A DNA stretch of 64,000 nt from Lingula anatina (Eukaryota > Animalia > Brachiopoda), in the NCBI GenBank assembly GCA_051362555.1, contig CM120640.1, positions 59,250,788 through 59,314,787 on the forward strand, read 5' to 3'. Shown one piece after another: positions 16,901 to 64,000 of the stretch; the stretch's first letter is position 1, and the number at the start of each line of letters is the position of its first letter. A program made the translations under genes and the position numbers. The notes beneath the pieces were generated by a model, which was not told the origin of the DNA, ran no database searches, and saw nothing but the letters and a program-made list of their open reading frames with translations.

Positions 16901-17513
16901 GTGTCAAATATATAGTCAACAAAGTGTCAAATTTGAAGCCATTTCCCACAATCATTCTGTTGAGTTCCAACTGATATATATACCCTACAAACGTATCTTC
17001 TTGGCTCACTTTTCTTTTTCATTTGTCATTATGTGAGTGAAGGATAGCATGCATTTCATTTTCTTGCATAAAATACATACTTGAAGAAGCTGTAGTAATT
17101 TTCTCATTCGTAATTGATGCCACAAGCCCTAATTTAGTGCTTAGTCAGTAATGCTTAATGTACAAAATACTCACAATAAATGAAACATTAATGAACAATC
17201 TGTGATTGACCATTGTTGTTGTTGTGGCAAAACAGTATTAAAATATGCTTACTTAAATGTCTAGACTCTAATAAAACTTACCTGAAGTCAGGTACAGAAC
17301 ATCTCCACTGTTAATACCACATGTTCCTAATGTCCTTGAAACATGCAATATATTATCATCTTTGGTTTTCAGTGCATATTCTGATTTTTGCTGGATGTTT
17401 TTATCTATGCAAAATGCTGCTATCAGACTGTCAACAGTTTGAGTTGGGTCTGTTGCTACGGTTAAACGTCCTGAGGCCCCATCCCCTAAAGTGCTCTGGA
17501 TTGTCACTTCCAT
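13945..17513 (-). CDS. 5' coding exons of a CD39/GDA1-family ectonucleoside triphosphate diphosphohydrolase (ENTPD1/2/3/8-like) with an N-terminal ubiquitin-like domain; partial
   Basis: Exons 17513-17282 ([10 protein letters not shown]...[12 protein letters not shown], Ubl-like, phase 1, GTAAGT donor), 14568-14438 ([45 protein letters not shown] helix, phase 0) and 14059-13945 ([33 protein letters not shown], apyrase conserved region 1 DAGSxHT, phase 1, GTGAGT donor). All GT-AG and phase-compatible; exon and phase layout matches CD39 exons 2-3 as recalled. Confidence 0.85.
16507..16720. mobile_element. MITE with about 30-bp imperfect TIRs
   Basis: Left GGGCCCATTCACAATGTCAACCTAGCCAAT versus reverse complement of right end GGGACCATTCACAATGACAAACAAGCTAAT. 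Confidence 0.65.
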
Positions 17514-18589
17514 ATTTGTGGCAGGTACTATCACAGATAACAGTTTAGCCCAGGAGAAAACATACTATTTAATGTTTCTGAGAATCATATATCCATGATC
17601 ACAGTCAGTGACTCCAAGTGATAATCTGAAATGGTAAACAAAATATATGTGAGTTCATACATGTTTATATATGTAATGTAGAATAAAATTTTTAGGAATT
17701 CACAAACATACACTAAACAGTTCTTTGGCATAAGTATTTTATTTTCAAATGTTCTCTAAATTCAGTTATGTGAGCCATGTCTCTACTATTCTAATAAGTT
17801 TGCAATAAACTTATGATTTCCAATGTTTTTACAAATTGCCCATATTAAGTCCATTAAAATATAATGACAGCTGTGGTAATTTCAAGGCTGAACATCTCAA
17901 AATCAGTACGTGAATGATAAAATTAATTCCTTTACCAGGGATATTGATCAAAGTCACAACATAACTCTCTTTAGAAAAACAAAATATAAAACCAAAGATT
18001 TGCATTTAAAGTTAGGGGATAACTGCATAAGTGCCAACCATACCACATGAAATTTCTGTGGAATTTGTTCACCAAAATTGAACAAAAGAAGAGACTACTC
18101 TCTAACACAACAATACAAAGCAGTACAAGTACCATAAACAACAGTAAAAATAATGTAATATTTGTTGCCAGTGGCCAATAAAAAACGCCCACCACACTAC
18201 TGAGTATATACTGGGTAAAAATTGGAAGTTTAAGTTTGACACATACTGCAAAGTGGCCAGTTTGTCCAAAATGAATTTGTTTCACATAATTTCAAAGAGA
18301 TAATTAAACATCACCAAAAATCCCCACACAAAGCAGTCAGCGGCAGATGTACAACCTAAAAAATGTTCTAGATGTCATGTGTAGAAAACTTCAAAAGCAG
18401 CACAATGTGATGTACACAAACAATATACCGGAAGACGAAGATCAAACACTGTTTACAGAGAATGTACTCTCTCAACAGCTAAATAGTTTCTTTAGACTTT
18501 AAGCTAACACAAAACTTGTGTAAATTAACGGTTCTTCAAAATCCGTCAGCACATTTTTTCTAAAAAACAAGAAAATTATCCGTACGTAC

Positions 18590-33200: not shown

Positions 33201-36200
33201 GTACATTTGACAGCTTTGCTGCCTTGTTTTCATTTACAATTAAACATCCCAAGCAGAGAAACTGAAAAAATACACATTTTATGTTAAATTTGTTGTAAGA
33301 TCAAGGGGAAATGAAAAATTTGGAATTCCTATTCTGTTAAATGTTGGTGTCACCTGCTGTGCTTTAATAGTCAGTCTTAAAAATTGACAGGTGCTATAAT
33401 TGTCTGCTTATATCAGTTATGTCATTATGTTCACAGTTGAAAGTTAATTTAAAAGAATCTGTTGAATTAATGATTTGCTGTTCTCAATAGGATCATCCAG
33501 TTTTTTACTTGGTTTTAGATAACTAACAAACGGCTTTGGAAACACCTTTATGACAAACTAGGAGGTAACCCAGGAAGTACTAGTGCTGCCACCTGCACCA
33601 GAAGGCATTATGAGAAGTAAGTGGGTTTGCAATAATTATTAAACAGTGCAGGTATACCTGTTACTGAGTTAAGCATTGTGATGTACAAGGGAAGATCTAG
33701 AGGTTGCCCCCATTTCCAAACCAAATTGTAGCCCACTCCCCACCCCCCAAAAAAGAAAAAGGTCACACACACAGAAGCATGTTTCATATACTCCATTGTG
33801 CTTATTTCCTTAGTTACATTGCACCTTTTTATTATGTACAGACACAGATGTGTCTGTACATATAGCCGTCACCTGCGTCTGTCGTCGCCGTTGCCGTTGC
33901 CGTTGCCGTTGGTGTGCACTTTTACCGTAAACACGATAAGTGGAAAACGGTTTTACGTTTTGATTTGAAACTTACAGAACTGATGAATATTCATAATATT
34001 CAGGTCAAGTTCGAAAATCAGCATGATCGGGCCATTTTTAGGGAAGTTATGCTGTTTTTTCACTTTTTTCAGCATATATGCAACACCATAAACACGATAA
34101 GTGGAAAACCGTTTTACCTTTTGGTTTGAAACTTACAGAACTGATGAATTTGTATAATATGCAGGTCAAGTTCGAAAATCAGCATGATCGGGTCATTTTT
34201 AGGGAAGTTTTGCTTTTGTTTCACTTTTTTCAGCATATATGCAACACCGTAAACACGATAAGTGGAAAACCGTTTTACCTTTTGGTTTGAAACTTACAGA
34301 ACTGATGAATTTGTATAATATGCAGGTCAAGTTTGAAAATCAGCATGATCGGGTCATTTTTAGGGAAGTTTTGCTTTTTTTTCACTTTTTTCAGCATATA
34401 TGCAACACCGTAAACACGATAAGTGGAAAACCGTTTTACCTTTTGGATTGAAACTTACAGAACTGATGAATATTTATAATACGCAGGTCAAGTTCGAAAA
34501 TTAGCATGATTGGGTCATTTTTAGGGAAGTTATGCTTTTTTTTTCACATTTTCTCTGATTCAGTTCTTAGGCATGTTAATAGTCTCATTATTGAACTAAT
34601 AAGATATGTAAAAGTATTTTTTTGACATTTCCTGCATCTTTACAACATTGTTAGTTGATTATGTAAAAATGATGGTAAACTTGTTATCGTGTATTGTGTA
34701 ATGAAGTGTCAAAAATGGAAATAAACACATAACATTGCAGTTTGTCAGATTCAATCATCCACTATGTTCAGTATCTCAGAATGGAGGAAATTGGACATTT
34801 AATACTGTTCTATCGATATTTTTCCCATCTCATCAATTTTCTTAGTTGGTCATATAAAAATGGCAGTAAACTGTTAATTTTGTTTTATGTTAAAAAAGTG
34901 TTAAAAATGGAAATAAACCCATTTCAGAAAAGTGCTGTCTTGTTTACATTTTGGCATTTTCAAGATGTGACTTTGAAGTTCCATGGGCCTGAAGACCTTT
35001 GCTAGTCACATTTTCTGAATATCCATGATACTAATATTTTATTATTAAAAATTGATGGTCATTATGCTGTTAAACATTATGTAATATTGCATCAAAATTT
35101 GAAGAAACCCCTATTTTGGGCACTGCTCCCATGATGACCATTTAAGGAAAATCATGTCACTTACTGTTCTCAAACTTACAGGAAAGAAACATGGGACTAA
35201 AATACAGCTTCGGTAGGCAATGCAGTCTGTTTGGTAATTTTTTCTGGCAGTTAAACAGTTTTTTGTGAAAATTTAATTTTTCACATATTGGCATTTTCGG
35301 GGTGTGACTTTGAAGTTCTATGATCCTGAAGACCTTTGCTTGTCACATTTTCTGAAAGTCCATGTTACTAATATTCTATTTTTAAAAATTGATGGTCATT
35401 ATGCTGTTAAACATTATGTAATGTTACATTAAAATTTGAAGAAACCCCTATTTTGGGCACTGCTCCCATGATGAGCACTTAAGGAAAATCATGTCACTTA
35501 CTGTTCTCAAACTTACAGGAAAGAAACATGGGACTAAAATACAGCTTCAGTAGGAAATGTAGTCTGTTTGGTAAATTTTTCTGGCAGTTAAACAGTTTTT
35601 TGTGAAAATTTCATTTTTCACATATTGGCATTTTCAAGGTGTGACTTAGAACCTCCACGGGCTTGAAGACCCATGCTAGTCACATTTTCTGAAAATCCAT
35701 GATACGTATATATTATTATTAAAAATTGATGGTTATTATGCTGTTAAGCATTATGTAATGTTGCATCAAAATAGAAGAAAACACAATTTTTGGTGCTGCT
35801 GCCATGATGACCATTATGGGAAAACCGTGTTACTTATGACTGTCAAACTTTCAAAAAAGAAACACAGGACTCAAATGCAGCCTGAGTTGGAAAAGCAGTC
35901 TAATTGGCTTCTTTTTCTGGAAGTTATACATTTTAGTGAAAAATTCATTATTATCGTGTTGGCATATTCATTGTGGGACTCAGAGCTCCCATGGACATGA
36001 AGCCGAATAGTAATCAAATTTTCTAAATGCCCATGCTATTTATAGTCAATAATCTAAAATTGGTGATAATTATTATATAATTTATTATGTAATGTTACAT
36101 CAAAATTGACAAAAATCTTTTTGCACTGCTACTGCAAACATTATGAAAAGAAAACTGTGTTACTTATTATTATTTTTAACTTACAAGTATGATTTTTAGG

Positions 36201-43800: not shown

Positions 43801-44087
43801 TCTCTAATAACATGTATTTTTGTAAAAAAGGATCACGTCACAGCTGTAAACTTTTTTTTTTTTTTTAGTGGTCATGATTCCAGATAGTACGGGTACAGCA
43901 TAGAAAATGCAAAATACCAGTGAAGATATCCATATATTTAATAATTAACCCAGTAAAATCTTGGACATCTGATGTTCCACAGAGGTAAAAAAAAAAAAAT
44001 TCAAACGACATGACCAAGCTGGGTTAGAGGTGGGTCAACCTTTTTGACCAAGAATACGTGTACATTTATGTCGGACCCGTGTATATA

Positions 44088-45540
44088 CAGTACGTACCTA
44101 TACTCCCCCGCACCGATACTCCCCCACTTCTTTACATCCCCGCACCGATACTCCCCCGCACCGATACTCCCCCGCTTCTTTACATCCCCGCACCGATACT
44201 CCCCCGCACCGATACTCCCTCGTACCGATACTCCCCCGCTTCTTTACATCCCCGCACCGATACTCCCCCGCACTGATACTCCCGCGTACCGATACTCCGC
44301 AAAAACACTACTCCCCCAAGGCATAGATTCCCTTGGCTTTGTAAACCCCATTCGTAATTTACAACACTTTCTGTAATGCTTTTTTTTCAAGATGCACCAC
44401 CCTCTTGGGACCCAGATTTGACAAATTTTATTCGAAATATATTGGGAAAAATAAAGAACGTTACACGAAGTCAATCTCAGACTTAGTGTGCAGCTTGACA
44501 GTACGTAGGTCTACAGCTCTTCCTTGTGATTTTTGAATGTTTTTGCAAAATTAATTTCGTTCTCCTACTGTACTCAGTAGTTTTTTTATTAACTTAAGGC
44601 AAAGTTAGTTTTAATCTAAGATAACGCAGCTATGTCTTTTTTTCAGGCAACGATGAATTCGTAAAATTATTAATTAAGTAATAAAAAAGAAGTGCTAAAG
44701 CGCTTCGTTTTCTGTCTTTTTCCTCCAACCTTCTTTTCTGCTCTTTAAGCTTCTTTCCCTTGTCTTTTGAATCTGAATTAGATTAGAATCTGAATTGAGC
44801 AAAATTCAAAAATTTTGAAAATTGTTGCACAACGAAATTGTCGAGACACGAGCATGCGTCGTGAGCACGCCTTTTATACTCGCAGTCCCGTCGTGTTTTC
44901 GATTTTGTTCGTTATAGATGTGAGGGCGTGCGCCGTACTCAACACGCAAAGGGCTCTTTCTCCTTCATTTCTTGCGGCGTGCATCTTGGACCAGGCAAGT
45001 CTCACTTGCAAACCAATCGCAAACTCCTTACAAAGGGAACAAATTACGCTTACGGCCTCGCTGTTCGCAGATTATTCGTAGAATCTATTGGAAATGTTCA
45101 ATATCCTCCGTACGTGCTTACATACGTGCGAACTCGAAATTTCGCATAAAGGACTTGCGTGGTACATGAGATTCTCCGCAAAATTTGGACTTAAACGGGT
45201 CGTAGATTTTGATCCACTTACCTAGACTGACCCTAACCTGTATAATTAAATGGAGGGTTGACTCTGTTACTCGATCCTCAGTTTCGGCAAAATTGCATAG
45301 GGGGAGTAATGATGAGGGGGAGTATCGGTGCGGGGGAGTAACGGTGCGGGGAAACAACAACGCTGGGGAGTATCGGTGCGGGGGAGTAACGGTGCGCGTA
45401 TAACGGCAATTTTACAGGGGGTTTATCGATGCGGGGATCTATCGGTGTGGGGGCGTATCGATGTGCATAATGCAAAAATTTACTAAGGGGGAGTATCGGT
45501 GCGGGGGAGTAACGGTGCGGGGGAGTATCGGCATGACCCC
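44088..45540. mobile_element. Foldback-type DNA element with inverted arms made of 16-bp tandem repeats
   Basis: Left arm (ATACTCCCCCGCACCG)n at 44100-44300; inverted copies GGGGAGTATCGGTGCGGG at 45300-45400 and 45487-45535; TATA on both flanks as a tentative TSD. ORFs in this interval are repeat artefacts. Confidence 0.65.
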
Positions 45541-46479
45541 TATACGGCTGTGGTAATACTCGTAGAAAAAGGTTTTTATTTTTTGACATGTCATAATACT
45601 AGCATAATCAAGATTGTTTTCCATTATTGAAGTGTGTAATTGTGACTAAAACATGGTATAAAATTCTTTTACTTCAATTCCAATACAACTGACATTCTAA
45701 CTTAATTTTAAAAACAAATATAAAGTGTTACCAAAGATATAAATATGAAATAAAAATAAATTGTTTTTGTGATCAGACAGCTTTCATTGCCAAGTTCCAC
45801 AACTACATATTTTTAAATTCAAACCCCATGTTCATTCAGGTGATTTCAGTACCCCTTGAATTATTTCATTTCTTTAAATTGGGAAGAACATCCAATAGAA
45901 ACATCCAATAGCCAACAGAATGTCACCAAACATAAAATCAGCATTTTTTTTTGGTTTGTCCAGAATCAAAGTTTATTCAAATGATTTTGTACACCATCAG
46001 GTGAATATTTAGCTTTCCATGCTGCATCTTTTAATTTGGAAGCTTACATTACCAACACAATAGTGTTAGTGTTCCAAATATGTAGGATTTAAGAGAAAGA
46101 GAGAGAAAATAAAAAGCTGATAAGATGAATATTTATTTGAATACAATATCATATAGAAAGACTACAGTATTTTTCCATTTTATTTACATGTAACTATCTA
46201 TAAGACCAAGTTTATATAAACAGAAGCTTGTCTCCCTATCTACATCATTAGACAAATTAGTGCCCAGTTAATTGCTTGTAGGTCAAGAGCATTTTAAGTG
46301 GGTACAACTTTCATTGTTTAAGAAAATTAAAAGGGGAAATATAGTTATGTTGGTGAAACAGAAATATTTGACATAACTATTGACAGAGTGAAAGCCACTG
46401 ATTGTCCTTCAACGGAAAACACCCTATATTTATAAGTATACAATGTTCAATCAATCATTTATCTTCGCCTCGATTTCGG

Positions 46480-46980: not shown

Positions 46981-47028
46981 TCACATTGTATCCAGTATTG
47001 ATATAGAAACTTTCCACACCCAAGACTG

Positions 47029-48531
47029 ATGAGTATGGAGTCATTGAAGATTTTGTATATGGCAGTGGCAGTTTTCCTCCTCACTACCCAAGCACCCAGT
47101 ATCTCTGCAGCTGGTCTTCAAAAGATATCTGTTAATGCTGATGGATGGTTTGTGGACCCCAATGGGCGTGTGATGCTTTTCCATGGCATTAACATGGTGC
47201 AGAAAGGATTTCCCTGGTATCCAGCAACTCTACTAAACAAAACCAAACTAAGAGACTACAAAAATTGGGGATTCAATGCAGTAAGATTAGGTATGATGTG
47301 GAGTGGACTCGAACCACAAGAAGGTGTCTTCAACACGACATATGCAAATATTATGTCTTCGATTGTTGACACTTTGGAAAACTATGGCATGTACTCTCTG
47401 CTTGACATGCATCAAGATGTCATGTCTTCCAAATTTCAGTCATATGATGGGATTCCATTATGGTTGGTAAATAAACTTCCCAACCCCTCTCAAGATGAAG
47501 CTTTTCCGTGGCCCTTTAAGAATATAGGCTCGTGGGAAGATGGATATCTAGCTAAAGCCACTGGCATGGCATTTCAGGGATTATACAGTAACAGAAGTAA
47601 TGCATTGGGCTACTTTTCACGATTTTGGCAGACCACTGCTAAGATATTTAAGGGCAGGGGTGGTGTTCTTGGCTATGAACTTATCAATGAACCTTGGGCA
47701 GGAGACATATGGAGCAATCTGAGTTTACTATTACCAGGCAATGCAGGTAGTCGTAATCTAATGCCAATGTACAAAGTGATAAATAAAGCCATTCGTGCAG
47801 TGGATGATGACACAATTATATTTTACGAGCCAGTAACTTGGGGTGTTATCTACAAAAATGATTATCATCACTTTGGAACTGGATTTAACATGGTACCTGG
47901 AGGAAGTGACTACAAGAACCGCAGTGCTTTGTCATATCATTATTACTGTTGGTTTGATAAACCTGCAGATGAACCCTTTCCCTACCCTGAATGGAAAAGA
48001 ATAGCCTGTGATGACTTCTGGGGTCCTTTTGTATTTCTTGCTGTCCGTGGTGATAGAGAAAAAATAGGAGGAGGTTCCTTCCTCACTGAGTTTGGTATTT
48101 GTAGCACAGATGGTAATAACAAAACAGAGGGGACAGTAGAATGTGAGTCCACTATGCAGGGGGCAGATGCCGCACTCCAGTCTTGGACATACTGGGACTC
48201 TTCCTTTTATTATTCCAATGGAAGTGTAAACTGGAATCAAGTGAGGTCCTTTTCGCGTGTCTACCCAAGAGCCACTGCTGGCACTCCCAAGTATTTAAAC
48301 TTCAATCTCACTTCTTTAATATTTACCTATAGATATGTTCATTTAGTTGCAATACAGCAACCCACAGAAATATTTGTGCCCAAATTTCACTACCCAAAAG
48401 GTTTCACTGTAGAATTGAAGGGCCAGCTGAAGTGGACCTTTGATATAAATGAATGTGTGATCTATGTGACTCCAGTAGACAGCAAACTCAAGTATATTAA
48501 TGCTCAGGTGATTATAAAACCCAAAACTTAA
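47029..48531 (+). CDS. Endoglycoceramidase (glycoside hydrolase family 5), secreted or lysosomal; single coding exon
   Basis: 500-aa uninterrupted ORF with a hydrophobic signal peptide and GH5/EGCase motifs HGINMVQK, WGFNAVRLG, LLDMHQD, GYELINEPWAG (acid/base Glu), LSYHYYC, FLTEFG (nucleophile Glu), SWTYW and SRVYPRATAG. Confidence 0.93.
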   Translation: MSMESLKILYMAVAVFLLTTQAPSISAAGLQKISVNADGWFVDPNGRVMLFHGINMVQKGFPWYPATLLNKTKLRDYKNWGFNAVRLGMMWSGLEPQEGVFNTTYANIMSSIVDTLENYGMYSLLDMHQDVMSSKFQSYDGIPLWLVNKLPNPSQDEAFPWPFKNIGSWEDGYLAKATGMAFQGLYSNRSNALGYFSRFWQTTAKIFKGRGGVLGYELINEPWAGDIWSNLSLLLPGNAGSRNLMPMYKVINKAIRAVDDDTIIFYEPVTWGVIYKNDYHHFGTGFNMVPGGSDYKNRSALSYHYYCWFDKPADEPFPYPEWKRIACDDFWGPFVFLAVRGDREKIGGGSFLTEFGICSTDGNNKTEGTVECESTMQGADAALQSWTYWDSSFYYSNGSVNWNQVRSFSRVYPRATAGTPKYLNFNLTSLIFTYRYVHLVAIQQPTEIFVPKFHYPKGFTVELKGQLKWTFDINECVIYVTPVDSKLKYINAQVIIKPKT

Positions 48532-50133: not shown

Positions 50134-50883
50134 GGTAGGCATTTTACCAACGACGACTTTTTAGAGTAACTCGAGATGAACTTTCTTAGGCCGAACCACC
50201 TGCATTGTTTACTGTACCTTTATGGCGTGACTACTACCGTTGTGTGGCCTTGCAGTCAGTCAGTAGGTCCCTTCTTTTCGTATTTGGGCTACAGTAAGTA
50301 GGTAGCATTAAAGGACTAAATTGAATCAATGCTGTATTATTTGTTAAGAAAGTTTTCTTTTTTTGCAAAATTTAACTTTGCTGGATAATCAGCTTTGCAT
50401 TGAAATTATTTTAACTGCATACTCATTGATTTCGATTTAAAAGTGTTGACAATCAACATTAAAAAATTGCAGGTCTTCTGCCATTTTAAGTGGTCATGAC
50501 CAGTCATAACCATGTCTGCACATGACAGTTAAAAATTAGGATTACTAAAAACCAAATGTTTTTGATGGTCTGAGCATAAAAACGCTACGAGACCATGCCA
50601 TAATTGGTTTTGACAACATTTTAATGGCAAATTATTCAATACTTTTTATAATGTAGATAAAATATAAAACAATAATTGTGATTGTTTTAACATATGTGAT
50701 TAATGAAGCAGTGTATCACCCTCCACACACCCCTCAACTGATTTTATGAATAAAGGCTCAGTGCATTATTTGTGAATTTTTTTTACACTGAAGATTTTTA
50801 CATATTAATAACTTGGATGTATATAGAGGGCTGGTATAACACTGTTGTTTTAAAAGATGTTCATTAGTTTCAGGTTTTGCTCC

Positions 50884-53800
50884 ATGTCTGCCAAGAATAC
50901 CTCATTAATTCTTCATAAGTTGCGTGGCTTGATGAAAAACAGTCACTATGTCACGGAGGAACTCCAGGCATATATTGTACCTTCAGAAGATGCTCACCAG
51001 GTATTATGTGCTTTTTGGTATTTTTCTTTAAATCATTTAAAGCAAAGTGTGTTTTTAAATATATTTGTAAGTAAATGTCAGTGTTTTAGTATGCTTTGTG
51101 CTTTTGATGACAAGTATACATATACTACTAAGAAGTGTATCATGCGATATATATATATATATATATATGGGTCAAAACACGGTATTTGAAATGTCTCTGA
51201 CGGGACATTTTAGAGACAATTTTAAAAATTACAGTTGGTAAACGATCCACATGGTTTCTTTTAAATACATTTTTATTTAGCTGGACCATAAAGGATTATG
51301 TAAAACAAGCAGCTAATTTGTATTGAAATTAATGTGGGAATGACAATCACTTAAAGGTCGGTCTCTGACGGGACATTTTTGACCCCTGTATTTTTTTACC
51401 AAAACTCCAATGCAAAATTCTCTTTGAAATTTCATTTAATCAAGACTTTTGTGATTCATATTGCAAGATAAAAGTCTTGGGAAGCAATTAATGCACAAAC
51501 AGGCCAGTTTTGTTTACTTTCCTTGGCAGCATGGGCTGTTGAGTGTAAAAAGTCACTGTCTCTGACGGGACGTCTCTGACGGGACACTTTTGGGCACTAT
51601 TGAAAAATCTTAGAAAAGAGGTTTAAAAAGCCACATTTTTGTATCTAATGAATCTTACTTGATGGTTATTGCAAAATAGCATTTCTGTACATTAGAAAAA
51701 TCACCAGATGCAATATGTTTAGAATATTAATTAATTATCATGATCGACACAGCGATAAGGCACAGTATAAAATTTTCACGTAATCCACTGTCCATTACTG
51801 AAGTTCATGATGACATAATTCAATATCAATCAACATTTTCCATGATAGTTCACATAATAAATCCTGTTTTTCAATTAGTCTTAGAACATATATCTTTTCT
51901 GCACTTTAGAGATTTTTTCAACCAGTCACATTAACAGGTGATGGAAACAAGTATATATATATATATTTTTTGTCTTTGAAAATAGTAAATATCAGTAACA
52001 TTTTTTTAAAGTTTATTTTTTATTTTTTCCACACAGAGCAGACAAATGAAATGAATCTTTCTTTCATTTAAAAGAGAAATTTGAAATCCATTATCAGTAT
52101 TTTTAAATATTAAAAAATATGCATATTTAATGTGTGTATTTGAAACCTTTCAGAGTGAGTACATAGCTCCTTGTGACTGTAGAAGAGAGTTTGTTAGTGG
52201 ATTCTCAGGGTCTGCAGGTAAGGCAAGTCAAGGTTATATACAACTTGGGAGTTCATATATTTTCTCAAAACTGAAGTTATTTAAAAAGGTGATTGGTTAT
52301 CTGAAGCTTATGTTTATTTGTGAGAAAACAGTTGAATTTGTTTCAGATTTGCTACTAGCTGGAGCTTTGGCTGTCACCTTCATTATTACAAGAATCTTGA
52401 GGTCACATAAAACGATCTATATTTGGTTGTACTAAGCTTCCATTATGGAAAAAGAAAAGAAATTTACGTTATAACAAGAACATGTTGAGATGCTAAGTAT
52501 TATATTTCAAACTCCTTTTGGTGAGAAGTGTGACTTCTTTGTCCTATCACTGAAAAAATGATAATCTATAATGAAAAGGACTGGTTAGAAAATTTGCAGA
52601 GGGCTATCAATTGCAACAAAAAATTTAGCAAGTATATTATTCATTTCATTTGTCTGTTTGTAGTCAGATTTTTGTCTGGTGATAAAATAGTTGACAAAGT
52701 GGTATTAGAAAACAAAATTCAATGCACTGCATATTGCATGATTTCAGTAAGACCATATTGTTTTCACTGTAGGATCAGCAGTTATTGTGCAAAATAAAGC
52801 AGCAATGTGGACGGATGGACGCTACTTCCTGCAGGCAGAGAGACAAATGGATGACAACTGGACTCTGATGAAGCATGGTTAGTTACCTGGTCTTGAATGT
52901 TCAGCTACATCATTTAAGCAAAGTTGTTTGACAGCTACCTAAACCATTATGTTTTGCTAAAAGTTTCAAAATGAATAAGTATTTTAAAGTTGTTAAAACT
53001 TAAATGAGTCTGCTTTTTGTCTTTGCAGGCCTTCCTGAAACTCCAACTCAAGGAGATTGGTTATCAAAGGTAATAACCATTTGTCCTCATATGCATTAAC
53101 TGTAAGTTTGTATGTTAGTTGCCCAATTGATCTTGAGGTAATGAGAACCAATGGAGGATATTAGTCATTTTCTTGGTTTCTTGTACATATATTGGGATTA
53201 GTTTATTGAAATGTAATTGTGTGAATCCAAGTAGGAGGGTTTGAGAACTTCATTTAATAGTTACTATTTCCTTATTAATTACTTTATTTATTTATTTATT
53301 TGTTTATTTTATTTATTTATTTTATTTATTATTATTATTATTTTATTATTTTTTTGGTGCCCTTAAAGATGGAATAATATACTTTTTAAACAAAGTGTAA
53401 TTTTAGTTTGATGCAATACATGGTTAAATTTTTACTATATGCTTGCAGGTGTTGCCACCAAGTGGCAAAGTTGGAGTTGATCCATTCCTGCTGTCTGCTG
53501 GTTAGAATCTATTACATATTTTATTTTGTATATTTATATTTGTAAATCATGGGATTTTAGATTTACACGAAGTACCAGAGATTTCTTGCAATTATATATT
53601 TAGATACACATAACCTTACATTTTCACAAAAATAAGGAACAAAAAGAATGACAAAGCTTTACCATTGTTAAGTGATATCTTCAATGCCTAGAAACATCAG
53701 GGATAGGCAAACTACTGTTCAGTAATACTTTCAGAGAGATGGAAAGAGTTGTCTAAGACTTTGGAATCAAATGGTCATATGTTGGTGCCGGTGGCTCAAA

Positions 53801-56800
53801 ATTTAGTGGACATTGCATGGAATGACCGACCACCTCCACCTAACAACCCTCTCATTGTGCAGCCTCTGAAATACACAGGTATAATAGTTCTGACTAGTGC
53901 TTAGAATTTTCTTATTTAAATGTAAGTGTATCAAAAATGTTAAATTTTGTAATTTTGGTATTGACAATTTTTTCCTAAACACTTATGTTAAAAAACTATT
54001 TAGGTTCTACTTGGCAGGACAAAGTTAGACAAGTAAGAGCCAAAATGAAGGAGAAAAAGGTTGGAATGCTGGTTGTTACAGCTTTGGATGAAATTGCTTG
54101 TAAGTAATCTGCAACTTTTTTAAATTGTAGAATTTTGCTTAATAATTAAAAATCATTATTCTCTTTTATACAAAGTTTCTGATTTTTAAAAGAGCAGGAG
54201 AGAATATAGAGATTTATTATTTGAAAGAAGAAACTCAGTTTTAATAAGGTTTTATGGGTACGTGGGGGGTATTGAGCAGTTTTTACCGTCAAATAGGATG
54301 GCAGAGTGAAACTAATTTGCTAAATATTAGGAAACATTCTGTCACCTACTTCACCATATTGTTTTTATGATTCAGGGCTGTTTAATTTGAGGGGATCAGA
54401 TATTGCCTACAACCCCGTGTTCTTTTCCTATGCCATTGTAAAGGAAGACATGGTCGGGTAAGCTAGCATATACCTTCTTGTTCTGTCATGTATGAAAGAT
54501 AGTTGTAGTAATGTCATTGATTGTAAATCTGTATGATGTCATTTAGTTTTGAGGAATATTTGTTTCTTGTGGAATTAATTCAACATGTTAAAATAGATAA
54601 GATCTTTAGATATTTGATTTAGATACTTTGAACTGTGTTGGTGAGCTTGGAATGCTACTTTCAGTTGAATGCCAGAATTAACCAACATCATTAATTTATT
54701 AGGCTGAAGACAACATCACTGAGTATATGAACTAAAGTGTATAGGCCACCTACATTGAATGTCATCATCTCTGTTTTATTTTTAAAGATTATGGATAGAT
54801 GAAACCAAGCTAGATGCAGCAGTTCTTCATCACCTCAATGCCGCACAACAGAATGGAGATGGCAGTGACATAACAGTTACTCTTTATCCCTATGACTCCA
54901 TAAAAGACTATATCAGTGCGTTAATGGAAGGCATAACAGGGAAAGTGTGGGTGAGTGATCATACCATGATATAGATTGATACATATTCAAATTGACTCAT
55001 TTTTTAAAGTTTTCTGCATAGACTTATGATAAAACAATTGACTATTGACTGCCAATTGTATATGCAGTCAATAGTCTATAACTATAATTAGGCAAATATA
55101 GTTTGGTGTTATCTTTTTCAGATAAGCAATAAATCTAGTTATGCCTTGGTCAGTTTGGTTCCGCAGGTAGGTCCTTACAAATTGTCTGTTTTAATTTTTA
55201 GTGTGTGTGTACATAGCATTACATTGTTGGGTATATAACGTAATGTCATATAGACTTTATGAAGTCAGTGGTATGAAAGCCTTTTAGTTTGATTTCTGCT
55301 GTATGATAGATATATTTTTTGTACGTTTTCTAGTAATTGCATGTAAATAACCTTTTTTTTTATCAACTCAAAGTGGTTATTTTAAAGAGCTACAACATTT
55401 TTATATACACGTAGAACAATCATTATGGAGAATTGAGCCCTATAGCAGAGATGAAAAGCAAAAAGAACAGCACAGAGATAGATTGTATGAAAAGAGCTCA
55501 TGTCAAAGATGCTGTTACACTATGTGAATATTTTGCTTGGTTGGAGAAGGAGGTAGGTAGCCTAGTGAAAATGTTTCAGTTGACAAAGAAAAAGGTACGG
55601 TCAAAATACTTGTGATTTCTAGACATAATCTTTAATTTTTATTTTGGAGAATGGCCATTAAAACAATAAAATTAGCTATTTATTTCTTTTGATCATAGTG
55701 AGGTTAAAATTCTTTAGGAAGCTGTCAAAGATTAGTAATTTTAAAGATTTTTTGCACTGTTCTTTCCATTAAAAGGTTCCAAAAGGCAATGTTTCAGAGA
55801 TGTCAGCTGCTGAAAAACTAGAATTGATTAAGAGGTATGTTCTATATCACATAAACTAAGTGTAAAAGCCTAAAGAAATGATGAAAAAATTCTAATAAAC
55901 AAAAAAAAAATCCTGAATATCAAAGAGAAAAAGATTTTTTTTGTATTATTTGCCTAATATTTTTCTGCAACTCTCTTTATTTTAGGCAGCAGGAAGATTA
56001 TGTGAGTTTAAGTTTTTCCACCATTTCCAGTTCAGGTCCTAACGGTGCTGTGATACACTATAGGTAAGTGGGGGGTATTGAGCAGTTTTTACTGTCAAAT
56101 AGGATAGCAGAGTGAAACTAATTTGCTAAATAATATGAAGTCTTCTTCATAATCAGACAGAACATACAGCATTGAGCTGATGAAAAACAATGTAAATACA
56201 TACATTCTTCTCTAATTATAAAAGCTTTAGATTTTTAAGTGGTTTAAAGCAGATTTAAAAAAAACATTTTGACTAATAGTTCAAAAGTGTTTTCAAATGG
56301 GATGCGAAAAAGTATTAGTTAAACTAAATCTTTGTTAATGATGCCGGATTTTCAGACCAGTCCCTGACACCAACCGTCCTCTCTCCACTGATGAGATTTA
56401 TCTGTGCGACTCTGGGGCACAGTACAGGTATGCCAGACTTGAGATTTTTTGCAATAAATGTCTCCTTATCTAGGTTTGTCTGATTTTTCCTATTTCTTTT
56501 TTCTTTTGTGTTTTCTTGTCCAACAAAAGTCCTTCCAAAGAGACATCTCGTGAGTTGTCAGTGGATGAAATGTACCTTTGTGACTCTGGAGCTCAGTACA
56601 GGTAGAAAACCATCATCTTAATGATAATATAGTTATGCTAGCAACATATGTAGCATATCAATTTGGAGAAGATTGCCTTTCGAAATCGCATATCCCAAAT
56701 CATATACCAAACCAAAATCTGAAAATTTAGAAATTATATTGTATGATGTTCAAATGTATGCATATGTGTGTCTGTCTGGTAGGCCTGATATTACGTTTGC

Positions 56801-59800
56801 AGTATGATGTATGTTTTATATACAATAGGGATGGCACAACTGATGTCACCAGGACTATGCATTTTGGTAAACCAACGGCATTCCAACAGGAGTGTTTCAC
56901 TAGAGTTCTTCAGGGCCATATAGCTTTAGCACTTGTGATATTTCCAAATAAAACCAAAGGTATGGTACTTTCACAAAACAGTTTTAGAAGTACCGTGCAT
57001 ACTGTTTTTTAGTTGCATCTTGATATATTTGATTAAATGTATATAGATTTGAGTTTCAATGGTTAACTTTAAAAAATTCATACCGTGAGTTGTCTTATGG
57101 GTCACAATTGCTTTTGTCTCGATCATAGATATTTATACACATTGTTATCATAAATATGTGGTGTATAGTATAGGTACTAATACAATGGAAAGTGTCATGA
57201 ATTTGAACTGTTGAAACATCAAAGCTCTTAATTCATGCATTCTCCTACAGGTCATATGTTGGACACCCTGGCTAGGACGGCATTATGGGAAGTTGGGCAA
57301 GATTATCTTCATGGAACAGGACATGGAGTAGGAGCTTTCCTGAATGTCCATGAAGGTATGTCACTGAAAACCTAACTTTATTCTGATATCAGCATAATGA
57401 AAGTAATAGATTCAGTTGGATGCTTAGGGAAAGAATATACTGGATGTCTTTTCCACTGGTGGCCTTATGTCTTAAAGGGACGAAGAGGAATGATGATGAT
57501 AATTTTCCTCTGTTAATACTCTTGGAAACAATATTAATGGTTTAGTACATATCCATCCTTTATTCATGTTCTGTCACTCTCTTGGAAAAAGATTTTTACA
57601 AATTAATGGCATTATTAACTTTCATTAGGCCCCTGTGGAATCAGCTACAAGTCCTTCACAGACTGCCCACTTCAGGAGGGGATGATTCTCAGCAATGGTA
57701 TGTAAAGGGGACCATTGTGACTTGGTTAAAAGGACTTTTAAGTATTAAAATAGTCCTTTAAGTCTATTGACATTCAACACATTAAGTTTATTGAAATTCA
57801 ACACAAAGAAAAAGATGGTCTAAAAGGTTAAAGTGATGGATAATAATACAGCATATACTATATAAGACTGCATGCACAAACTAACATTAAAAATGACGGG
57901 GCTGCTTGGCTTGGGTGTTATCAATTTTATTATCATCCAAAAAAATTAATCTCTCAATTTGAATTTTTTTCTTCAGAGCCTGGTTACTATGAAGATGGAC
58001 AATTTGGAATAAGGATAGAAAATTTGTTTTTAGTCAAGCAAGCAGAGACAAAGGTATACAGTGATATTGAACTTTAAATATGGAACACTAAATCTGAAGC
58101 AATGCATTTGATCTTAGGCAAGTTTTCAAATATTTGTGCTTATTATGATGAAACTACACCCCTTACTGTTTTGACAACCATTAATTAGTGATCTAATTTT
58201 AAACTTAAAAGTTTTGACATTTGTAACATCTAAGTTTTTTTCCTTAGAAAATTCTAAAAATACATATAAACTAGCTGATACCAGTCACATCAATTATTTA
58301 ACCATGATAAGAAATTATTATACATGATTTATAGAATCTCTTTATATACTATATTCTGTGTGAAAGTCTGATTTCCACACTTGCCCTGAGTCAAAGATTT
58401 TGTGACTTTAACAAAAATTTTCTGGAACAACCGGGCTCTAGAGAATGCCACATAGGTCCATAAAGCGATGACGTCATAGCATAATTACACAAAACAATGG
58501 CACATCTAATGCAATATGGAAGTTAGACAATGAAACCTTATCACCATATCAAAACAATAAATATTTATTTTTTAAGTGTTTTACATCAATAAATACAGTT
58601 AACAGTATTTGGTGTAATTTATAAATGATGCTAAATATTTTATCATGGTAATTGAGACCTTTTATTTGTTTGTGACTTGCATTTTCAACCAACATCCAGT
58701 AAAAAAACAATAAAATTAAAAACCCACCTCCCTATCCTGCCTTCAGGTGCAAAAAGAACTATGAACAATCATTTTATATTAATATATATTATAATAATTA
58801 TTATAATTATTATTATTATTTTTAATTTTAAAAAATGGGACTGAGTGGGAATTGTAGCCACTGCAGCGTGTTTGGCAGCCAAGGATGTTATCCACTGTAC
58901 AACCAAATCCTGCTGTCTGTTGTAGTGTTGTTGATTTTATATGATACCTGTCACACGGACCGAAACTTTACGGAAATTGCTTAAGGCTGGAAAATGCCTT
59001 TAAAATATGCTTTTAACAGTTATAATCAAATTCAAAGTCCATCCACTTTCTTCCCACTTCCATAAGGTATTGCTAACACCTGTCAGTTGTCAACAGATTA
59101 TTGTAGTTTGGGAGAAAAACCTGACAAGGAAACTTTGGCTTATCTGCTGTTACTATATAGATATCTGACTGTCTGAAAAAGTTATTGCTTGAATTGATTG
59201 TTAGACCAACATGTTGTCCCACACAGCATAATATCTGGAAATGTATAGAACCCACTATGTTATATACTAACAAAATACATTTTATACATGCAATTTGAAT
59301 TTGCTAGGAAAAGGGGTTTTCTCAGGAAATTTCTCAAATCAAATTTCTCAAAAAAAAAAAAAAAAAAAAATTAAAGTAAATCAAATTGAAGTAGATGATA
59401 AACCTGGTATTTAAAATATTTTACATACCTGCTTTCTTACCAAACTGATGAGTCATATTTTAAGTCATAGGGGCCATTCAGAATAGATGATCCGAGTACT
59501 AACTGATTTGCTGACTGAATATGGCCGTCCCTACTTCAAAAGTGATGCCACTGATTCCCGATGGTCTCCCCGCCTCAGTTAGTACTCAGATCATCTATTC
59601 TGAATGGCCACATAGTTTTTAGACTACATGAAATCCAAAAATATTCTGGAATGGGTTCAGTGCCAGCTTTATATTAGTCAAAACATTGAACTAGAATTGT
59701 TTGACACTCCACACTAGCAGCTGTAGGAATTTTTGATGTCTGTTACATAAATCTTTTTATTATTCTATCAGCACAACTTCAAGAACAAAGGATTCCTAAC

Positions 59801-60278
59801 TTTTGAACCTCTGACTCTGGTTCCAATACAAACAAAGATGCTGGTGCCATCCATGCTGTCACAAAAAGAGGTGAACAGTTTACTTATACAAAATTGAAAG
59901 GCACGAGTTGAATGTCTCACATAATGGGACTTTTTACTCAGTTGTACATCAGGATTTGAAGTTTAAATGCAGCATAAATGTAAAGGCATTAGTTTTTTTT
60001 TTTAACTATTAAAATTTTGTTGTCATTACACTTTAAATTCATTTGTAACTGAATTACCAGTGACATCAAAGTAGTTACATATTACAATATTACCAAATTT
60101 TTTATGTTGTGTGTCATTAAAAACAAGTTGTATTCACAATGTTTCTTCATATTCCCAGATTGACTGGCTGAATGCATACCACCTGTTATGCCGGGAAGTG
60201 GTGGGGCAAGAGCTGAAGGACCAAGATAAGCAAGAGGCATACGAGTGGATGATGAGGGAGACTGAACCATTGGGTTAA
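50884..60278 (+). CDS. XPNPEP1: Xaa-Pro aminopeptidase 1 (cytosolic aminopeptidase P, M24B)
   Basis: Exons 50884-51000, 52154-52217, 52773-52877, 53029-53069, 53449-53500, 53735-53878, 54004-54099, 54376-54457, 54788-54950, 55122-55166, 55415-55552, 55776-55834, 55986-56063, [56356-56427 or 56530-56601], 56829-56959, 57251-57355, 57629-57697, 57977-58053, 59772-59870, 60159-60278. Motifs [64 protein letters not shown]; all phases consistent; no signal peptide or GPI tail. Confidence 0.97.
51169..51951. mobile_element. Probable DNA transposon remnant inserted in (TA)n, with subterminal-type direct repeats
   Basis: Four copies of GTCTCTGACGGGAC (51193, 51361, 51558, 51572); bounded by (TA)n tracts on both sides. 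Confidence 0.45.
54262..54326 (+). repeat. 65-nt intronic hairpin element, copy 1
   Basis: 63/65 identical to 56068-56132; folds as a stem-loop. Confidence 0.85.
56068..56132 (+). repeat. 65-nt intronic hairpin element, copy 2, overlapping the 5' splice site upstream of the alternative exons
   Basis: 63/65 identical to 54262-54326. Confidence 0.85.
56356..56427 (+). CDS. XPNPEP1: XPNPEP1 alternative exon A ([23 protein letters not shown])
   Basis: 72 nt, ttcag| acceptor, |gtatgc donor, phase 2-2, open frame. Confidence 0.9.
56530..56601 (+). CDS. XPNPEP1: XPNPEP1 alternative exon B ([23 protein letters not shown]), paralogous to exon A
   Basis: 72 nt, long polypyrimidine tract plus aaaag| acceptor, |gtagaa donor, phase 2-2, open frame, synonymous divergence from exon A in the shared YLCDSGAQY codons. 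Confidence 0.85.
59470..59611. mobile_element. Short Harbinger-like MITE in an XPNPEP1 intron
   Basis: About 36-bp near-perfect TIRs (GGCCATTCAGAATAGATGATC.GAGTACTAACTGA) and ATA target-site duplication. Confidence 0.8.
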
Positions 60279-61088
60279 ACTGATGTCCTGTTCACTTTAG
60301 TTGGACTTTCATTTACATTCACAGACAGTTACGGCTTTTAAGAACTTCAAATGGCCAGGAAAGAAGACGTAAAAATATAATTTTTTTCTTAAATTTTACA
60401 AGACTATTTTTAAATTTACTGTTACTGACAGTGTTTCTAAAAGTGAATGGTCTATTGATAGTTGGCAAATTTAATATTACTATAAATAGTACATATCATT
60501 TTAAAGACATCCCAACTTACTTTCAACACTGCCATTTTTGTCAATGATATTTATCCTGTATGTGAAACCACTTGTTGCTGTCTGATTGTGCATTTCGTTA
60601 ATTATTCTGGTAGAGTATATATACTAAATTTGAAATTGTCAATTTTTCAACAGTTTATCACAACCAGAGAATAGAACTTCTATAGCATTGGTGTATTTAG
60701 ACATATTTTTTAAATATTCATTTTATTCTATCATGCACAAATGTTATGGAAAATATACATTACAAAACTGCAATGATTTATGGTTTTATTAAAATTGACA
60801 TACAGCTGACATCTTGATCACAGGTACAAATACTTCCCAATCACATACATTTCTAAAAATCATTAATTTTCTTGATACTCAGCATTCAAACTGATCTCTC
60901 TCTCTCTCTCTCTCTGACAGATACAATTGTAGTGCTTAAATGATCCTTTCCTCTTTTTAAATTGAAATATTACCATTTCACTAGATATCTCAAACTACAG
61001 AGATCTTTGATAAGCCTTCCTATGTTTGTGTCAGGACAGTAGTTCAAAATTGGGGGGAAAACTTTTTTCATAATTTGGACTAAATAAT

Positions 61089-61610
61089 TTATTGAACCCC
61101 ACAACCACTAGGTTCATTGCTGTAGCTTCTAGGCAACAAATTCTTAAGTTCCCGACGAGCAGACTCAAAATCACTGATGAAACTTTCTCTATTTTGAATG
61201 TTGTTGTAGTTGATATCATGAATAAGCTTGTTCCTCTCACGCTTCAAGCGATGCATTTTATTCTTTAACGGCAATGGCAGTGGCCTGGCTGCATGAGTAC
61301 AAGCACTCTCTATGAGATCACCTGCACAAAAAAATCCTTTGTTAGTTGAACAATGCCATGATACATATAATTGCATTACTTTAGCTGATCTTAAATTTCA
61401 AGTTTATTCTTATTCTTTTCATTTGTGTTTATCTAGTTTTGTAAATATGTACCATACATTTCAAACATCAATTGACAAAAAGGCACCACCTAGCCCATTT
61501 CCTGTTGCATTAAACTGTTCTTTTAGAATAAATTCCAATTCTTTGCTGGTTCGTATAACCAGTTCAAAATCATTTCTGCTGTAAATTGGTTCCGACTCTA
61601 TATTCCCCAT
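61089..61610 (-). CDS. 117-aa HEPN/DUF4145-like protein with predicted N-myristoylation and C-terminal CaaX motif
   Basis: Exons 61610-61490 (MGNIESEPIYSRNDFELVIRTSKELEFILKEQFNATGNGL, 121 nt, phase 1, |gtggtg) and 61321-61089 (GDLIESACTHAARPLPLPLKNKMHRLKRERNKLIHDINYNNIQNRESFISDFESARRELKNLLPRSYSNEPSGCGVQ*, ttttttgtgcag| acceptor). An acceptor (ttttcag|) lies 4 nt before the ATG and a likely non-coding exon ends at 62078 (cag|gtaggt). Confidence 0.85.
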
Positions 61611-64000
61611 TCCCCTGAAAATCAGAATTGTGAGTGCTTATAATTGAGACTATTAAACGTTTGGAGGACATACACTGTAGGATCCTGTATAAAGAGTCAC
61701 TGGACTGAAATAAAGCCTTTATAATTTCAGGATTTGAACTGCCGTCTCTGATACCGATCACCACAAAAAGGGACGTACTAGTGTATCCTAACAACCGTTG
61801 TTTATCTACCAAAACAAGTAACTAATGATATGTTAATGAATATCATAAAACATAACGTTTATGAAAGCTAAGATACGGTCCAAGTGAAAATAGTAGCAGT
61901 AGCCGTATAGCTGATGTAACCTTAGACAAAGCCATGCGCTTTAATAATATCCTTTATGGTGCGAACTAACCATAGAAGTACATGTAAGTTGAGTAGGGGG
62001 TGTGAAAATAACTCCCCACCACCAAACCACCCCATCTTTTTGATACTCTGGTAGTGACTTCGGTAATAAATACCTACCTGTATACTTTCTTTAAAAGCTA
62101 TCTTTAACTGTTAAGTGACCTCGGTTCGATCGTGCTTTTGGTCAACGCGACGAAAACGAAAGCAATAAACATTTCCAGTGGAAATAGGTACTCGTTCACG
62201 ACAGTCTTAAGTACATTTTACGACATAAACACATATGCGTTCCAGTCGCAGGTTTATAAAGGGCCAAGTCAGATTTCCCCCCAAGATTCGACTTAATATT
62301 AAAAAATAAGTTAGCAGAAAGATATGTAGCAAGGTTAAACATACTGCATATTTTACCTGTTACAGCTATGTTAATCTCGATTTTTGTGTTAGATAGGTAG
62401 GCCCCTAATACACTGTCACCCAGCGATATTTTCGGTTGTGGAGAGGAGGGGGGGGGGGGGGGGGAACGCATGTGTAGATAGATTCCCATGGATAGTGGTA
62501 GAGCTTAATGGGTAATACCAATACTTGCAGTCAGCAATGCATTCGCCTCGGGAGTTTTATGGGTTAACGAATTCGGAACCAGCGATCGGGAATACATGTA
62601 GTGGGTGAGTGGGCCCCCTAAGATCGACCCTTTTTTTTTCTGCGCGGGATTTAAAAAAGGGGAGAGCATCCCCCTCGCTCCCCCTACCTCTGGTTCCCAC
62701 GCTACGATTCACTTTAACAGCCGGAGTAAAGAAAATACTTGGGAACACCGAGTCTTCGGAACAATAATGCATAATGCATTTTCATGAAAATGCCTTCAAA
62801 AATTTTGGACCTACGAATCTTTGGAATAAAAATGCTGTGGGATACCGTTTTTAGTCCGCTGTTTTGATAATTCTTTTCGACAGCTCCAACTCATAATGGT
62901 TGATGTTCACTTTCAATAGCTCGACTGTTCCATTACGTCCGACAATTAATATCTTAGAACATGTTTACAGTGAGCGGTACATCAAACTGGTTCACTTCAC
63001 TTTGAGAAAACGGACAATCCTATAGGATGGCTATTACGTATACGAGTCACAAAACGGTGGCCTGAGCTCGACATTTTCAATATTAATTAACTCAACTAAA
63101 TTTGTGGAGAACTGGTAAAAAGATTAAACCCCCTGTTGCGTGTTAAGGTTTTAGGATCTCTCATAGTGGACCGGTCCAGTTAAATGTACCACACGATATA
63201 GAGAATCTGGCTTAAACACATCTCACGGTAGAATATATCCAAACTTCCATATAACTTCTTGATGAACTTTTTTCAAACACTCAATCGATCATTAAACTTA
63301 GTAAAATACAGGCACTGATGTTACAAAGATGTTTTATTTTTTCTATAAAACGATGCATATATATCACGTTCGACTTTGCACATTAATGGTCAAACTAGAT
63401 ATCCTAGTACATTACTCACATGTAACACAAGTAACTCTTATGTCCAAGATATGCCTTTCTTCAGAGCAGTTTTGATAAATGTCATGATTTATTGGCGTTG
63501 TGTATAGCTTTTAAATCAAGGTAAACGCCTGACGAAACAACTGTTCATATTTAAGACAGAAAAAAGTAAAGGGAATGGAGCGTTCTATAAAGCCAAATAT
63601 GGCGTCTAGCTGTTAAAAGGAAACTTAACTTCCAAGAAAATTCAGGACAAGTATTAATTAAACAGACGAAGAGCGTATAGAGTGCAGCTAAGCCACTCCA
63701 ATTTTATTCTTATATTCTGTATATCCTCACGATCGAGGACAAATTATAATCGCTCGATATCCAATGAAGGTACTGCTGCATTGCCCTTAAAAAATAAATT
63801 GCAACGTTCTACATGTACTTCACAATAATACTGTACACTTTAAACCATGGCCTTTCCACGACAAAATAGCTGAAATGTGATCACTGTGATGCATCATCAT
63901 TAGTTTTATACTTCTTAGTCTAAACAATAAAGTACTGGTAGACATCTAGTCTTATGTCTTAACAAAAAGGCCCAAAAAGGCCTTTCAACTTGGCCTAACT

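Follow-up and report, generated by a model that had tools for sequence, protein, structure and literature searches.

In proteins of the HEPN superfamily helix 3 ends in an Rx4-6H motif, whose arginine is followed by a polar residue (N, D or H), a conserved acidic residue lies upstream, typically in an Ex3[KR] motif, and the N- and C-termini lie close together, as described in the survey of Anantharaman et al. (2013; PMC3710099). According to this survey, HEPN domains are mostly conflict RNases, and some of them are non-catalytic. It also describes three bacterial groups of transmembrane (TM) HEPN proteins, proposes that membrane HEPN proteins cut RNA at membranes, and presents this membrane RNA cleavage as an overlooked signalling route. 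The DUF4145 defence proteins RAZR and Ishtar are described with a zinc-finger sensor or a beta-rich domain (PMC13017515; bioRxiv 10.64898/2026.07.06.735840). ZAP-L and OAS1 p46 are reported to require prenylation to reach viral replication membranes (PMC8568172, PMC8357416).

The HEPN superfamily and TM-anchored HEPN proteins are thus known; what appears to be new at the locus presented here, judging from the sequences, is a family with a predicted lipid motif at each end.

Structure, expression and surroundings of the gene

The window, which is the whole 64-kb stretch of DNA analysed, is intron-rich and has about 33% GC; this setting and the closest relatives of the gene point to an invertebrate host. 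The gene lies on the minus strand, and its two coding exons (61610-61490 and 61321-61089) join into a protein of 117 aa that reads MGNIES…R70-N71-K72-L73-I74-H75…C114-G-V-Q. The features of the gene are the following:

62078..62149, minus strand: 5' untranslated exon; read depth in the bin 62076-62149 and none in 62150-62371; the 5' limit is approximate
61615..62077, minus strand: 5' UTR intron of 463 nt, GT..AG; seen in the sequence and in 13 junction reads from 3 of 4 RNA runs
61490..61614, minus strand: exon with the ATG at 61610 and codons 1-40; holds the myristoylation motif and the E-containing helix
61593..61610, minus strand: predicted N-myristoylation motif M-G-N-I-E-S (G2, S6), from sequence and family conservation
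61551..61565, minus strand: Ex3[KR] motif E16-L-V-I-R20 in the first long helix; kept in 148 of 155 relatives bearing ND[FY]E
61322..61489, minus strand: coding intron of 168 nt, GT..AG, phase 1, splitting codon G41; 30 junction reads in 2 of 4 runs
61089..61321, minus strand: coding part of the last exon, codons 41-117; stop TAA at 61091-61089
61218..61235, minus strand: HEPN-type motif R70-N71-K-L-I-H75 at the end of helix 3, from family conservation, models and HepT alignment
61092..61103, minus strand: C114-G-V-Q, a predicted CaaX motif for farnesylation; 155 of 165 relatives have Cys at -4
60722..61088, minus strand: 3' UTR with AATAAA at 60790 and 60727; its end is not fixed, the unstranded read depth being thin and reaching about 60750

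The gene is spliced and expressed. The sequence-only reading had proposed a two-exon gene for 117 aa with an additional 5' exon, and the RNA reads join both introns exactly where it placed them, with 30 spliced reads at 61490/61321 and 13 at 62078/61614. These raw reads come from four runs, of which 6-26% each was read. The 168-nt junction was found in 14 reads of run X7 and 16 of X8, with none in X1 and X4; the 463-nt junction was found in four reads of X1, six of X7 and three of X8, with none in X4. Read depth on the gene differs among the four runs, and X4 has zero depth over it. In the stranded run X1, the reads of the gene are oriented opposite to those of the adjoining plus-strand gene. 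The 5' exon has an in-frame stop (62106-62104) upstream of the ATG at 61610, so this ATG is the first usable start and Met1-Gly2 is fixed.

The reads hold 12 coding variants, five silent on 71 silent sites and seven replacements on 280 sites, which are small numbers; G2, S6, R70, N71, H75 and C114 are untouched by all of them. In run X7, a few reads fall within the coding intron (61410-61483), with a variant in its first in-frame stop, and one loose read end lies at 60977 in the 3' UTR, its first letters being absent from the window. Both are likely strain differences or a retained intron.

The gene stands tail to tail with a plus-strand M24 metallopeptidase gene (X-prolyl aminopeptidase-like, about 50850-60750), the 3' ends nearly meeting, and reads of the peptidase 3' UTR reach about 60740. 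At 47002-48531, on the plus strand, lies a GH5 glycoside hydrolase gene of 500 codons, which we take to be endoglycoceramidase-like; it is intronless in an intron-rich region, and is possibly a retrocopy or an old transfer. Exons of an ARID-domain gene, presumably BAH-ARID5-like, extend over about 19200-40900 (plus strand); a short ubiquitin-like exon without Pfam match is at 17268-17564 (minus strand); and long tandem-repeat tracts occupy 30200-36000 and 44000-45600, with repeated pseudo-ORFs in introns or between genes. No second copy of the HEPN-like gene was found within the 64-kb window.

Family members, conserved motifs and predicted fold

Shuffling the protein 200,000 times gave Rx4-6H, considered by itself, in 54% of cases, so the RxxxxH motif carries little weight on its own. 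The narrower R[NDH]x3H occurred in 3.9% of these shuffles, MGxxx[ST] in 0.58%, strict CaaX in 0.21%, and both lipid motifs jointly in 0.001%. The RxxxxH motif is taken as real because it is conserved in the relatives.

The first search used the last exon alone against 1.84 billion representative sequences and gave 21 matches at E<=0.001. Three of these (P0006, P0007 and P0012) are unrelated repeats and were removed before counting, which leaves 18 clear relatives. A profile search gave 855 proteins at E<=1e-5, of which 120 are listed; the protein searches covered lengths of 22-231 residues. Among the matches listed, the named members are from Amoebidium, Bugula, Watersipora, Globomyces, Fibrocapsa, Nitzschia, Seminavis, Fragilaria, Craspedostauros, Nannochloropsis, Saprolegnia, Achlya, Aphanomyces, Rhodomonas, Tetraselmis, Pyramimonas, Parachlorella and Ploeotia, and the named hosts include cryptophytes, green algae, euglenids, oomycetes, diatoms, a chytrid, Amoebidium and bryozoans. 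The collected proteins are mostly without species name; the grounds for treating them as eukaryotic are their named neighbours and the three nearest Atlas clusters, in which all members with a record (100%) are from Eukaryota. The 165 collected relatives include one bacterial protein and four first-exon read-throughs, all counted. The similar proteins in algae, protists and bacteria that the sequence-only reading had mentioned are supported by the 855 proteins at that threshold and at least 69 bacterial loci, and relatives with conserved G2, RNxxxH and CaaX are distributed across several eukaryotic groups.

Queries with single exons had no useful match in Pfam, NCBIfam, PADLOC, PDB sequences, plasmids or phages; the word-based protein search with the last exon gave zero candidates; viral contigs held no relative with either query; and the family profile had no match in PDB sequences. 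Weak matches to Herpetosiphon plasmids (E 0.3-0.7) were dropped, as they were not recovered as family members, and the metagenome locus L003 was a false positive with no ORF at the match. A full-text literature search, with subscription journals mostly outside its reach, found no paper on the family. The databases (UniRef, Atlas) name its members 'hypothetical' or 'DUF4145 domain-containing'.

RNxxxH is present in 160 of the 165 collected relatives, Cys at -4 in 155 and an MG start in 127; both terminal features occur together in 121, which measure 107-132 aa. The counts of terminal motifs are partly selected because the search profiles contained both termini. In the least biased set, where the query was the last exon only, a CaaX end is found in 16 of 18 family matches, and an MG start in seven of the 11 matches having the N-terminal part. 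Among 132 relatives, the positions of R70, N71 and H75 are conserved at 100%, 99% and 99%. G2 is present in 98% and S6 in 88% of aligned relatives with a residue there, and position 6 is S, T, A or C in 125 of 127 MG-starting relatives. The conservation of G2/S6, R70/N71/H75 and the CaaX cysteine, which the sequence-only reading had named as decisive, thus extends across the family (132-165 relatives counted). CaaX motifs with S, M, A, C or Q as last residue are of the farnesyl class. The last residue of the family is S in 67 proteins, M in 48, C in 30, A in four, Q in three, F in two and L in one; the farnesyl type in 152 of 155 points to selection for one lipid type.

The window protein has Gly2 after a fixed start and S at position 6, as in N-myristoylation sites; the acidic E5 and E7 near this predicted site count against the reading. 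At the other end it has Cys four residues from the end, an aliphatic a2 and X = Q, as in farnesylated CaaX boxes; CGVQ has Gly at a1, which is outside the eight commonest a1 residues of the family and likewise counts against. To our knowledge, it is unusual for one small domain to be flanked by an N-myristoyl and a C-farnesyl motif, and a phrase search of the literature gave no example of a protein with both. The window protein shares 49-56% identity with its relatives in Amoebidium and bryozoans, 39-44% with four named proteins (algal, oomycete, chytrid and euglenid), and 25-30% with two bacterial ones. On these sequence comparisons, the family is slow-evolving, low-copy and spread over many supergroups.

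Some members deviate at the N-terminus. In the Nannochloropsis-type proteins P0086, P0089, P0097, P0106 and P0131, the CaaX is kept and the start is MVKF or MGKL, with a short hydrophobic stretch replacing the myristoylation motif. P0139-P0163 form a second eukaryotic subfamily, which includes diatoms, has a short insert before GLHDKI and keeps both lipid motifs.

For the fold, an AlphaFold2 model of the Amoebidium protein P0001 (56% identical to the window protein; 132 sequences) was used as a stand-in for the whole window protein. It has helices at 15-34, 41-47, 57-75 and 85-110, three long and one short, with pLDDT 85; the model of the window's last exon shows the same helix ending at H75. 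The HEPN-type motif is R70-N71-x3-H75, with the polar N after the arginine, and in the model helix 57-75 ends at H75. The upstream acid lies in E16-L-V-I-R20; E26 is also 98% conserved and is nearer H75 in the dimer model. HEPN proteins are all-alpha, up-down bundles of four helices and about 100-120 aa, and form homodimers whose interface contains the motif. Structure alignments start at residue 15-25 of the solved chains, which suggests that the canonical helix 1 is largely absent.

Foldseek with the P0001 model placed HepT, HepS or HEPN entries at ranks 1-9, with a best E of 0.76, which is not significant; with the last-exon model no HEPN entry was obtained. In VIA-align, HepS was best (Z 8.1, rmsd 4.4, 108 aligned), Z of 7-8 being common for helical bundles, followed by 1wwp, HepT, YutE and MtlR at Z 7.1-7.5, with unrelated bundles up to 7.0. 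The Atlas structure rows gave HEPN, DUF4145 and MAE_28990 clusters at TM 0.63-0.66. Profile comparison by hhalign with an alignment of 19 HepT-like proteins, from which six HepT loci were left out (stops, short matches, unpublished status), gave a probability of 89.7% and a score of 37.4, with RNKLVH on RNxxVH; the best controls were 19.1 among 40 column shuffles and 10.2 for the reversed profile.

No Pfam, NCBIfam or PADLOC family reached its cut-off for the window exons or the relatives scored. The weak Pfam matches are mostly HEPN families: DUF4145 is the most frequent (matched at E<=0.05 by 33 of 132 members, with 1.5e-4 as the best value), followed by DUF3644 (18 of 132); PF01934 is matched weakly by three of 132, its cut-off of 23.5 bits not being reached (best 20.0, P0011), and HEPN_Swt1 weakly by two. 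Membership in DUF4145 (PF13643) was rejected, since 21 eukaryote-type and 20 bacterial relatives scored at best 16.3 and 21.0 against a cut-off of 23.1. The corresponding hhalign match, to a small set of 10 true domains, was 0.75% and no better than shuffles.

The predicted homodimer of P0001 scored 0.61 against a best control of 0.00, with contacts agreeing 100% between runs and pLDDT 83-84. Its interface includes K24/E27 as well as residues 73-77, against which the first helix of the partner copy packs. The mark applied to this score was attained by 21 of 30 solved homodimers from microbes and by none of 23 monomers. In eukaryotes it was reached by 17 of 29, and by only one of the seven without an older solved relative, so the pass of P0001 may reflect likeness to solved HEPN dimers.

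HEPN kinship, based on these models and alignments, is moderately supported. The suggestion of a HEPN-like fold and motif gains from the HepT profile match and from the HEPN entries leading the non-significant fold searches, among them the Foldseek search proposed earlier. The protein is here called, on its sequence, a putative HEPN-superfamily member of its own family, neither DUF4145 nor a HepT toxin.

Bacterial relatives and descent

At least 69 bacterial loci, found by a pattern-limited search, encode the same core in Planctomycetota, Gammaproteobacteria and others, with RNxxxH in 67 of the 69 and an MG start or CaaX end in none. A 19-residue hydrophobic stretch follows the motif in 53 of 68 bacterial proteins versus two of 161 eukaryote-type proteins, and in short bacterial relatives this hydrophobic tail begins where the eukaryotic CaaX lies. 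The bacterial relatives, which the sequence-only reading did not describe in this respect, appear to replace the lipid motifs with a predicted membrane-spanning tail.

In 17 of the 69 bacterial relatives, from Gemmata-like planctomycetes, G-C-F/L is found at the start of the tail helix (loci L010, L016, L019-L021, L023, L025, L028, L030-L032, L034, L038, L041, L043, L044 and L049). It sits 36-38 residues after the His, the median for the eukaryotic CaaX cysteine being 40. The eukaryotic CaaX could come from a shortened planctomycete-type tail; the tree does not nest the eukaryotes inside the G-C-F/L group.

The phylogenetic tree was built from 56 rows and 87 columns of the core only, without the termini. 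One of its branches (99/94) consists of the window protein, two bryozoan proteins, four others and, outermost, that of Amoebidium, and a quick 199-row tree agrees with the window-Amoebidium-bryozoan branch with weaker support. On the eukaryote side of the 56-row tree there are also two long branches of bacterial proteins. Seven database fragments of the branch start or stop at the Gly where the coding intron of the window gene falls, which implies a shared intron position. A search built from the branch found 45 proteins and only two named animals, both bryozoans; this search requires shared exact words.

A recent bacterial transfer into the window's animal was rejected, as the nearest rows are the Amoebidium and bryozoan proteins. 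The horizontal inheritance suggested earlier fares poorly, since the animal copies branch with Amoebidium and appear to share an intron position. From the sequences, old vertical descent with wide loss is favoured over recent transfer.

Proposed function and comparison with known systems

We propose that the gene encodes a conserved HEPN-like protein, predicted to be myristoylated, farnesylated and dimeric, which would be a membrane-surface ribonuclease in routine or stress-linked RNA turnover; we regard this reading as evenly poised between right and wrong. Gly2 would be myristoylated and Cys114 farnesylated. Two copies would form a two-fold dimer, as in the model, the E-helix of one packing on the R-N-x-x-x-H loop of the other, and by analogy with established HEPN chemistry the two R/H pairs would form one metal-independent endoribonuclease site. 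By the rules for such lipids, up to four acyl/prenyl anchors per dimer would hold the protein on the cytosolic membrane face; because HEPN termini are close, the two lipids on each chain would point to one and the same membrane. There the dimer would meet membrane-bound RNA, such as mRNA that is localised or bound to the ER, or RNA bound to vesicles. In eukaryotes the two lipids would have taken the place of the bacterial tail helix.

The slow evolution of the family and its core-gene status in Vibrio, the genus of the query genome G001, lead us to prefer a housekeeping or stress role to one in arms-race defence. A relative is present in 118 of 121 Vibrio genomes, nearly always single, and adjoins yhhN in 10 of 10 loci checked, one of them in the query genome; at locus L045 (4983-5348), rsmD and ftsY lie within 4 kb. 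This presence and fixed site are a core-gene pattern, not that of a defence island. The Vibrio relative (L108-L117, L045) has no NCBIfam name, and is an uncharacterised HEPN protein with a predicted membrane tail in a well-studied genus.

An antiviral or anti-parasite effector, in line with the defence role that had been suggested earlier, is rather unlikely. The lipids would then place a latent HEPN RNase on the endomembranes where RNA viruses replicate, like OAS1 p46 plus RNase L, or ZAP-L, in one tiny protein. HEPN domains being mostly conflict RNases (PMC3710099) and the need of ZAP-L and OAS1 p46 for prenylation to reach replication membranes (PMC8568172, PMC8357416) speak for it, as do the very patchy occurrence in animals (two named, both bryozoans, among 45 matches) and the read depth varying between runs. 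In addition, some bacterial relatives adjoin defence genes, namely AbiE (L008), Fic (L033), type I restriction (L059 and L060) and PDC-S40 (L042). However, these convincing defence neighbours are few: most of the 91 neighbour proteins scanned with PADLOC had no match, the other matches being generic kinase, helicase, sigma-factor or topoisomerase domains. The neighbours are mostly housekeeping genes, and among the bacterial loci none is conserved beyond close kin. The 39-56% identity across supergroups, the near-core single-copy Vibrio gene, and the lack of a paralogue in the window and of a sensor domain also speak against this role.

It is also rather improbable that the protein, at least in the animal/Amoebidium branch, is a membrane-tethered HEPN-fold dimer which does not cut but binds RNA, nucleotides or a partner protein. 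Some HEPN domains are non-catalytic (PMC3710099), and this branch shows concerted changes beside the motif, in all its members covering the region, at residues that are almost invariant elsewhere. GLH has become GLG, whose lost histidine is kept by 143 of the 153 other eukaryote-type proteins and by 68 of the 69 bacterial ones, and the A-T-I that precedes the Arg has become x-R/K-E. In the dimer model, G40 of P0001, beside the lost His, touches H75 of the other copy. Given these replacements, activity or specificity may differ in animals. R70, N71 and H75 are nevertheless kept in the window protein and all seven branch relatives, as is RNxxxH in the family overall, which suggests catalytic constraint.

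The two lipids might instead be ciliary targeting signals, for UNC119 (myristoyl) and PDE6-delta (farnesyl) cargo, with the protein acting in the flagellar membrane. This we consider very unlikely. Both lipid types tag ciliary cargo (PMC4635315), but the protein is present in pennate diatoms, Parachlorella and Amoebidium, and was not found in most ciliated animals by a search that requires shared exact words. As for the hosts, many of those named presumably have flagellated stages, whereas pennate diatoms, Parachlorella and Amoebidium, as far as we know, have no flagella. That the ORF is spurious or lineage-specific and its motifs have arisen by chance, as the shuffles for Rx4-6H and the lack of a curated family match might suggest, is already refuted by the spliced reads and by hundreds of relatives keeping all three motifs, and its probability is negligible.

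Returning to the membrane-surface ribonuclease, the wider reading, which we hold slightly short of an even chance, is that of an ancient minimal HEPN RNase family in at least five eukaryotic supergroups, with a myristoyl and farnesyl clamp replacing the bacterial tail helix. It would represent a shared membrane-surface RNA-cleavage pathway, lost from most animals and kept and remodelled in a few. If true, this would mean an additional RNase family found throughout eukaryotes, and a clear example of a tail-helix anchor exchanged for two terminal lipids around an unchanged catalytic core. As the protein is a single domain of 13 kDa with orthologues in tractable algae and in Vibrio, the membrane-cleavage proposal is directly testable.

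Among the known systems, HepT/DUF86 (PF01934; PDB 5yep, 6m6u) and HepS (9oij, 9oik) are alike in stand-alone size, all-helical structure and an R-N-x-x-x-H ending helix 3, as well as in the 89.7% profile match, the top fold-search ranks and the predicted dimer. However, HepT toxins are paired with an MNT antitoxin; no nucleotidyltransferase antitoxin was found at E<=1e-8 among 76 bacterial neighbour proteins (of 102 distinct immediate neighbours plus one), and the window gene has the M24 peptidase and GH5 hydrolase genes as neighbours. The family here also differs in carrying predicted lipid or tail anchors. The likeness to DUF4145, including RAZR and Ishtar, consists of weak Pfam matches and database labels only, and the zinc-finger sensor or beta-rich domain of these proteins is absent. 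The PADLOC defence models (2023 library) matched zero families for the window exons, two bacterial relatives and two eukaryotic relatives.

ZAP-L and OAS1 p46 show a CaaX lipid setting an RNA-acting protein on endomembranes, as predicted here; they have unrelated folds, a single lipid and no nuclease in the chain, so the analogy is functional only. The KEN domains of Ire1 and RNase L, C6orf70 and the three bacterial TM-HEPN groups have HEPN at the cytosolic membrane face, like the protein proposed here, but use transmembrane helices and extra sensor domains, and in the sources cited none is described with terminal lipid motifs. The 2013 family table, as far as cited here, includes no lipid-anchored solo family (PMC3710099), and its alignments might include the bacterial branch. 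By description only, this branch, in which HEPN is followed by a C-terminal tail and some members have a Zn ribbon, is similar in outline to the third TM-HEPN group. Finally, solo eukaryotic HEPN proteins (Swt1-like Ava_2192 in Daphnia, Naegleria and dictyostelids; solo KEN in Oikopleura) are single-domain with close bacterial relatives, as here; they are described as lineage-specific expansions (PMC3710099), whereas the present family appears low-copy, slow-evolving and shared by many supergroups.
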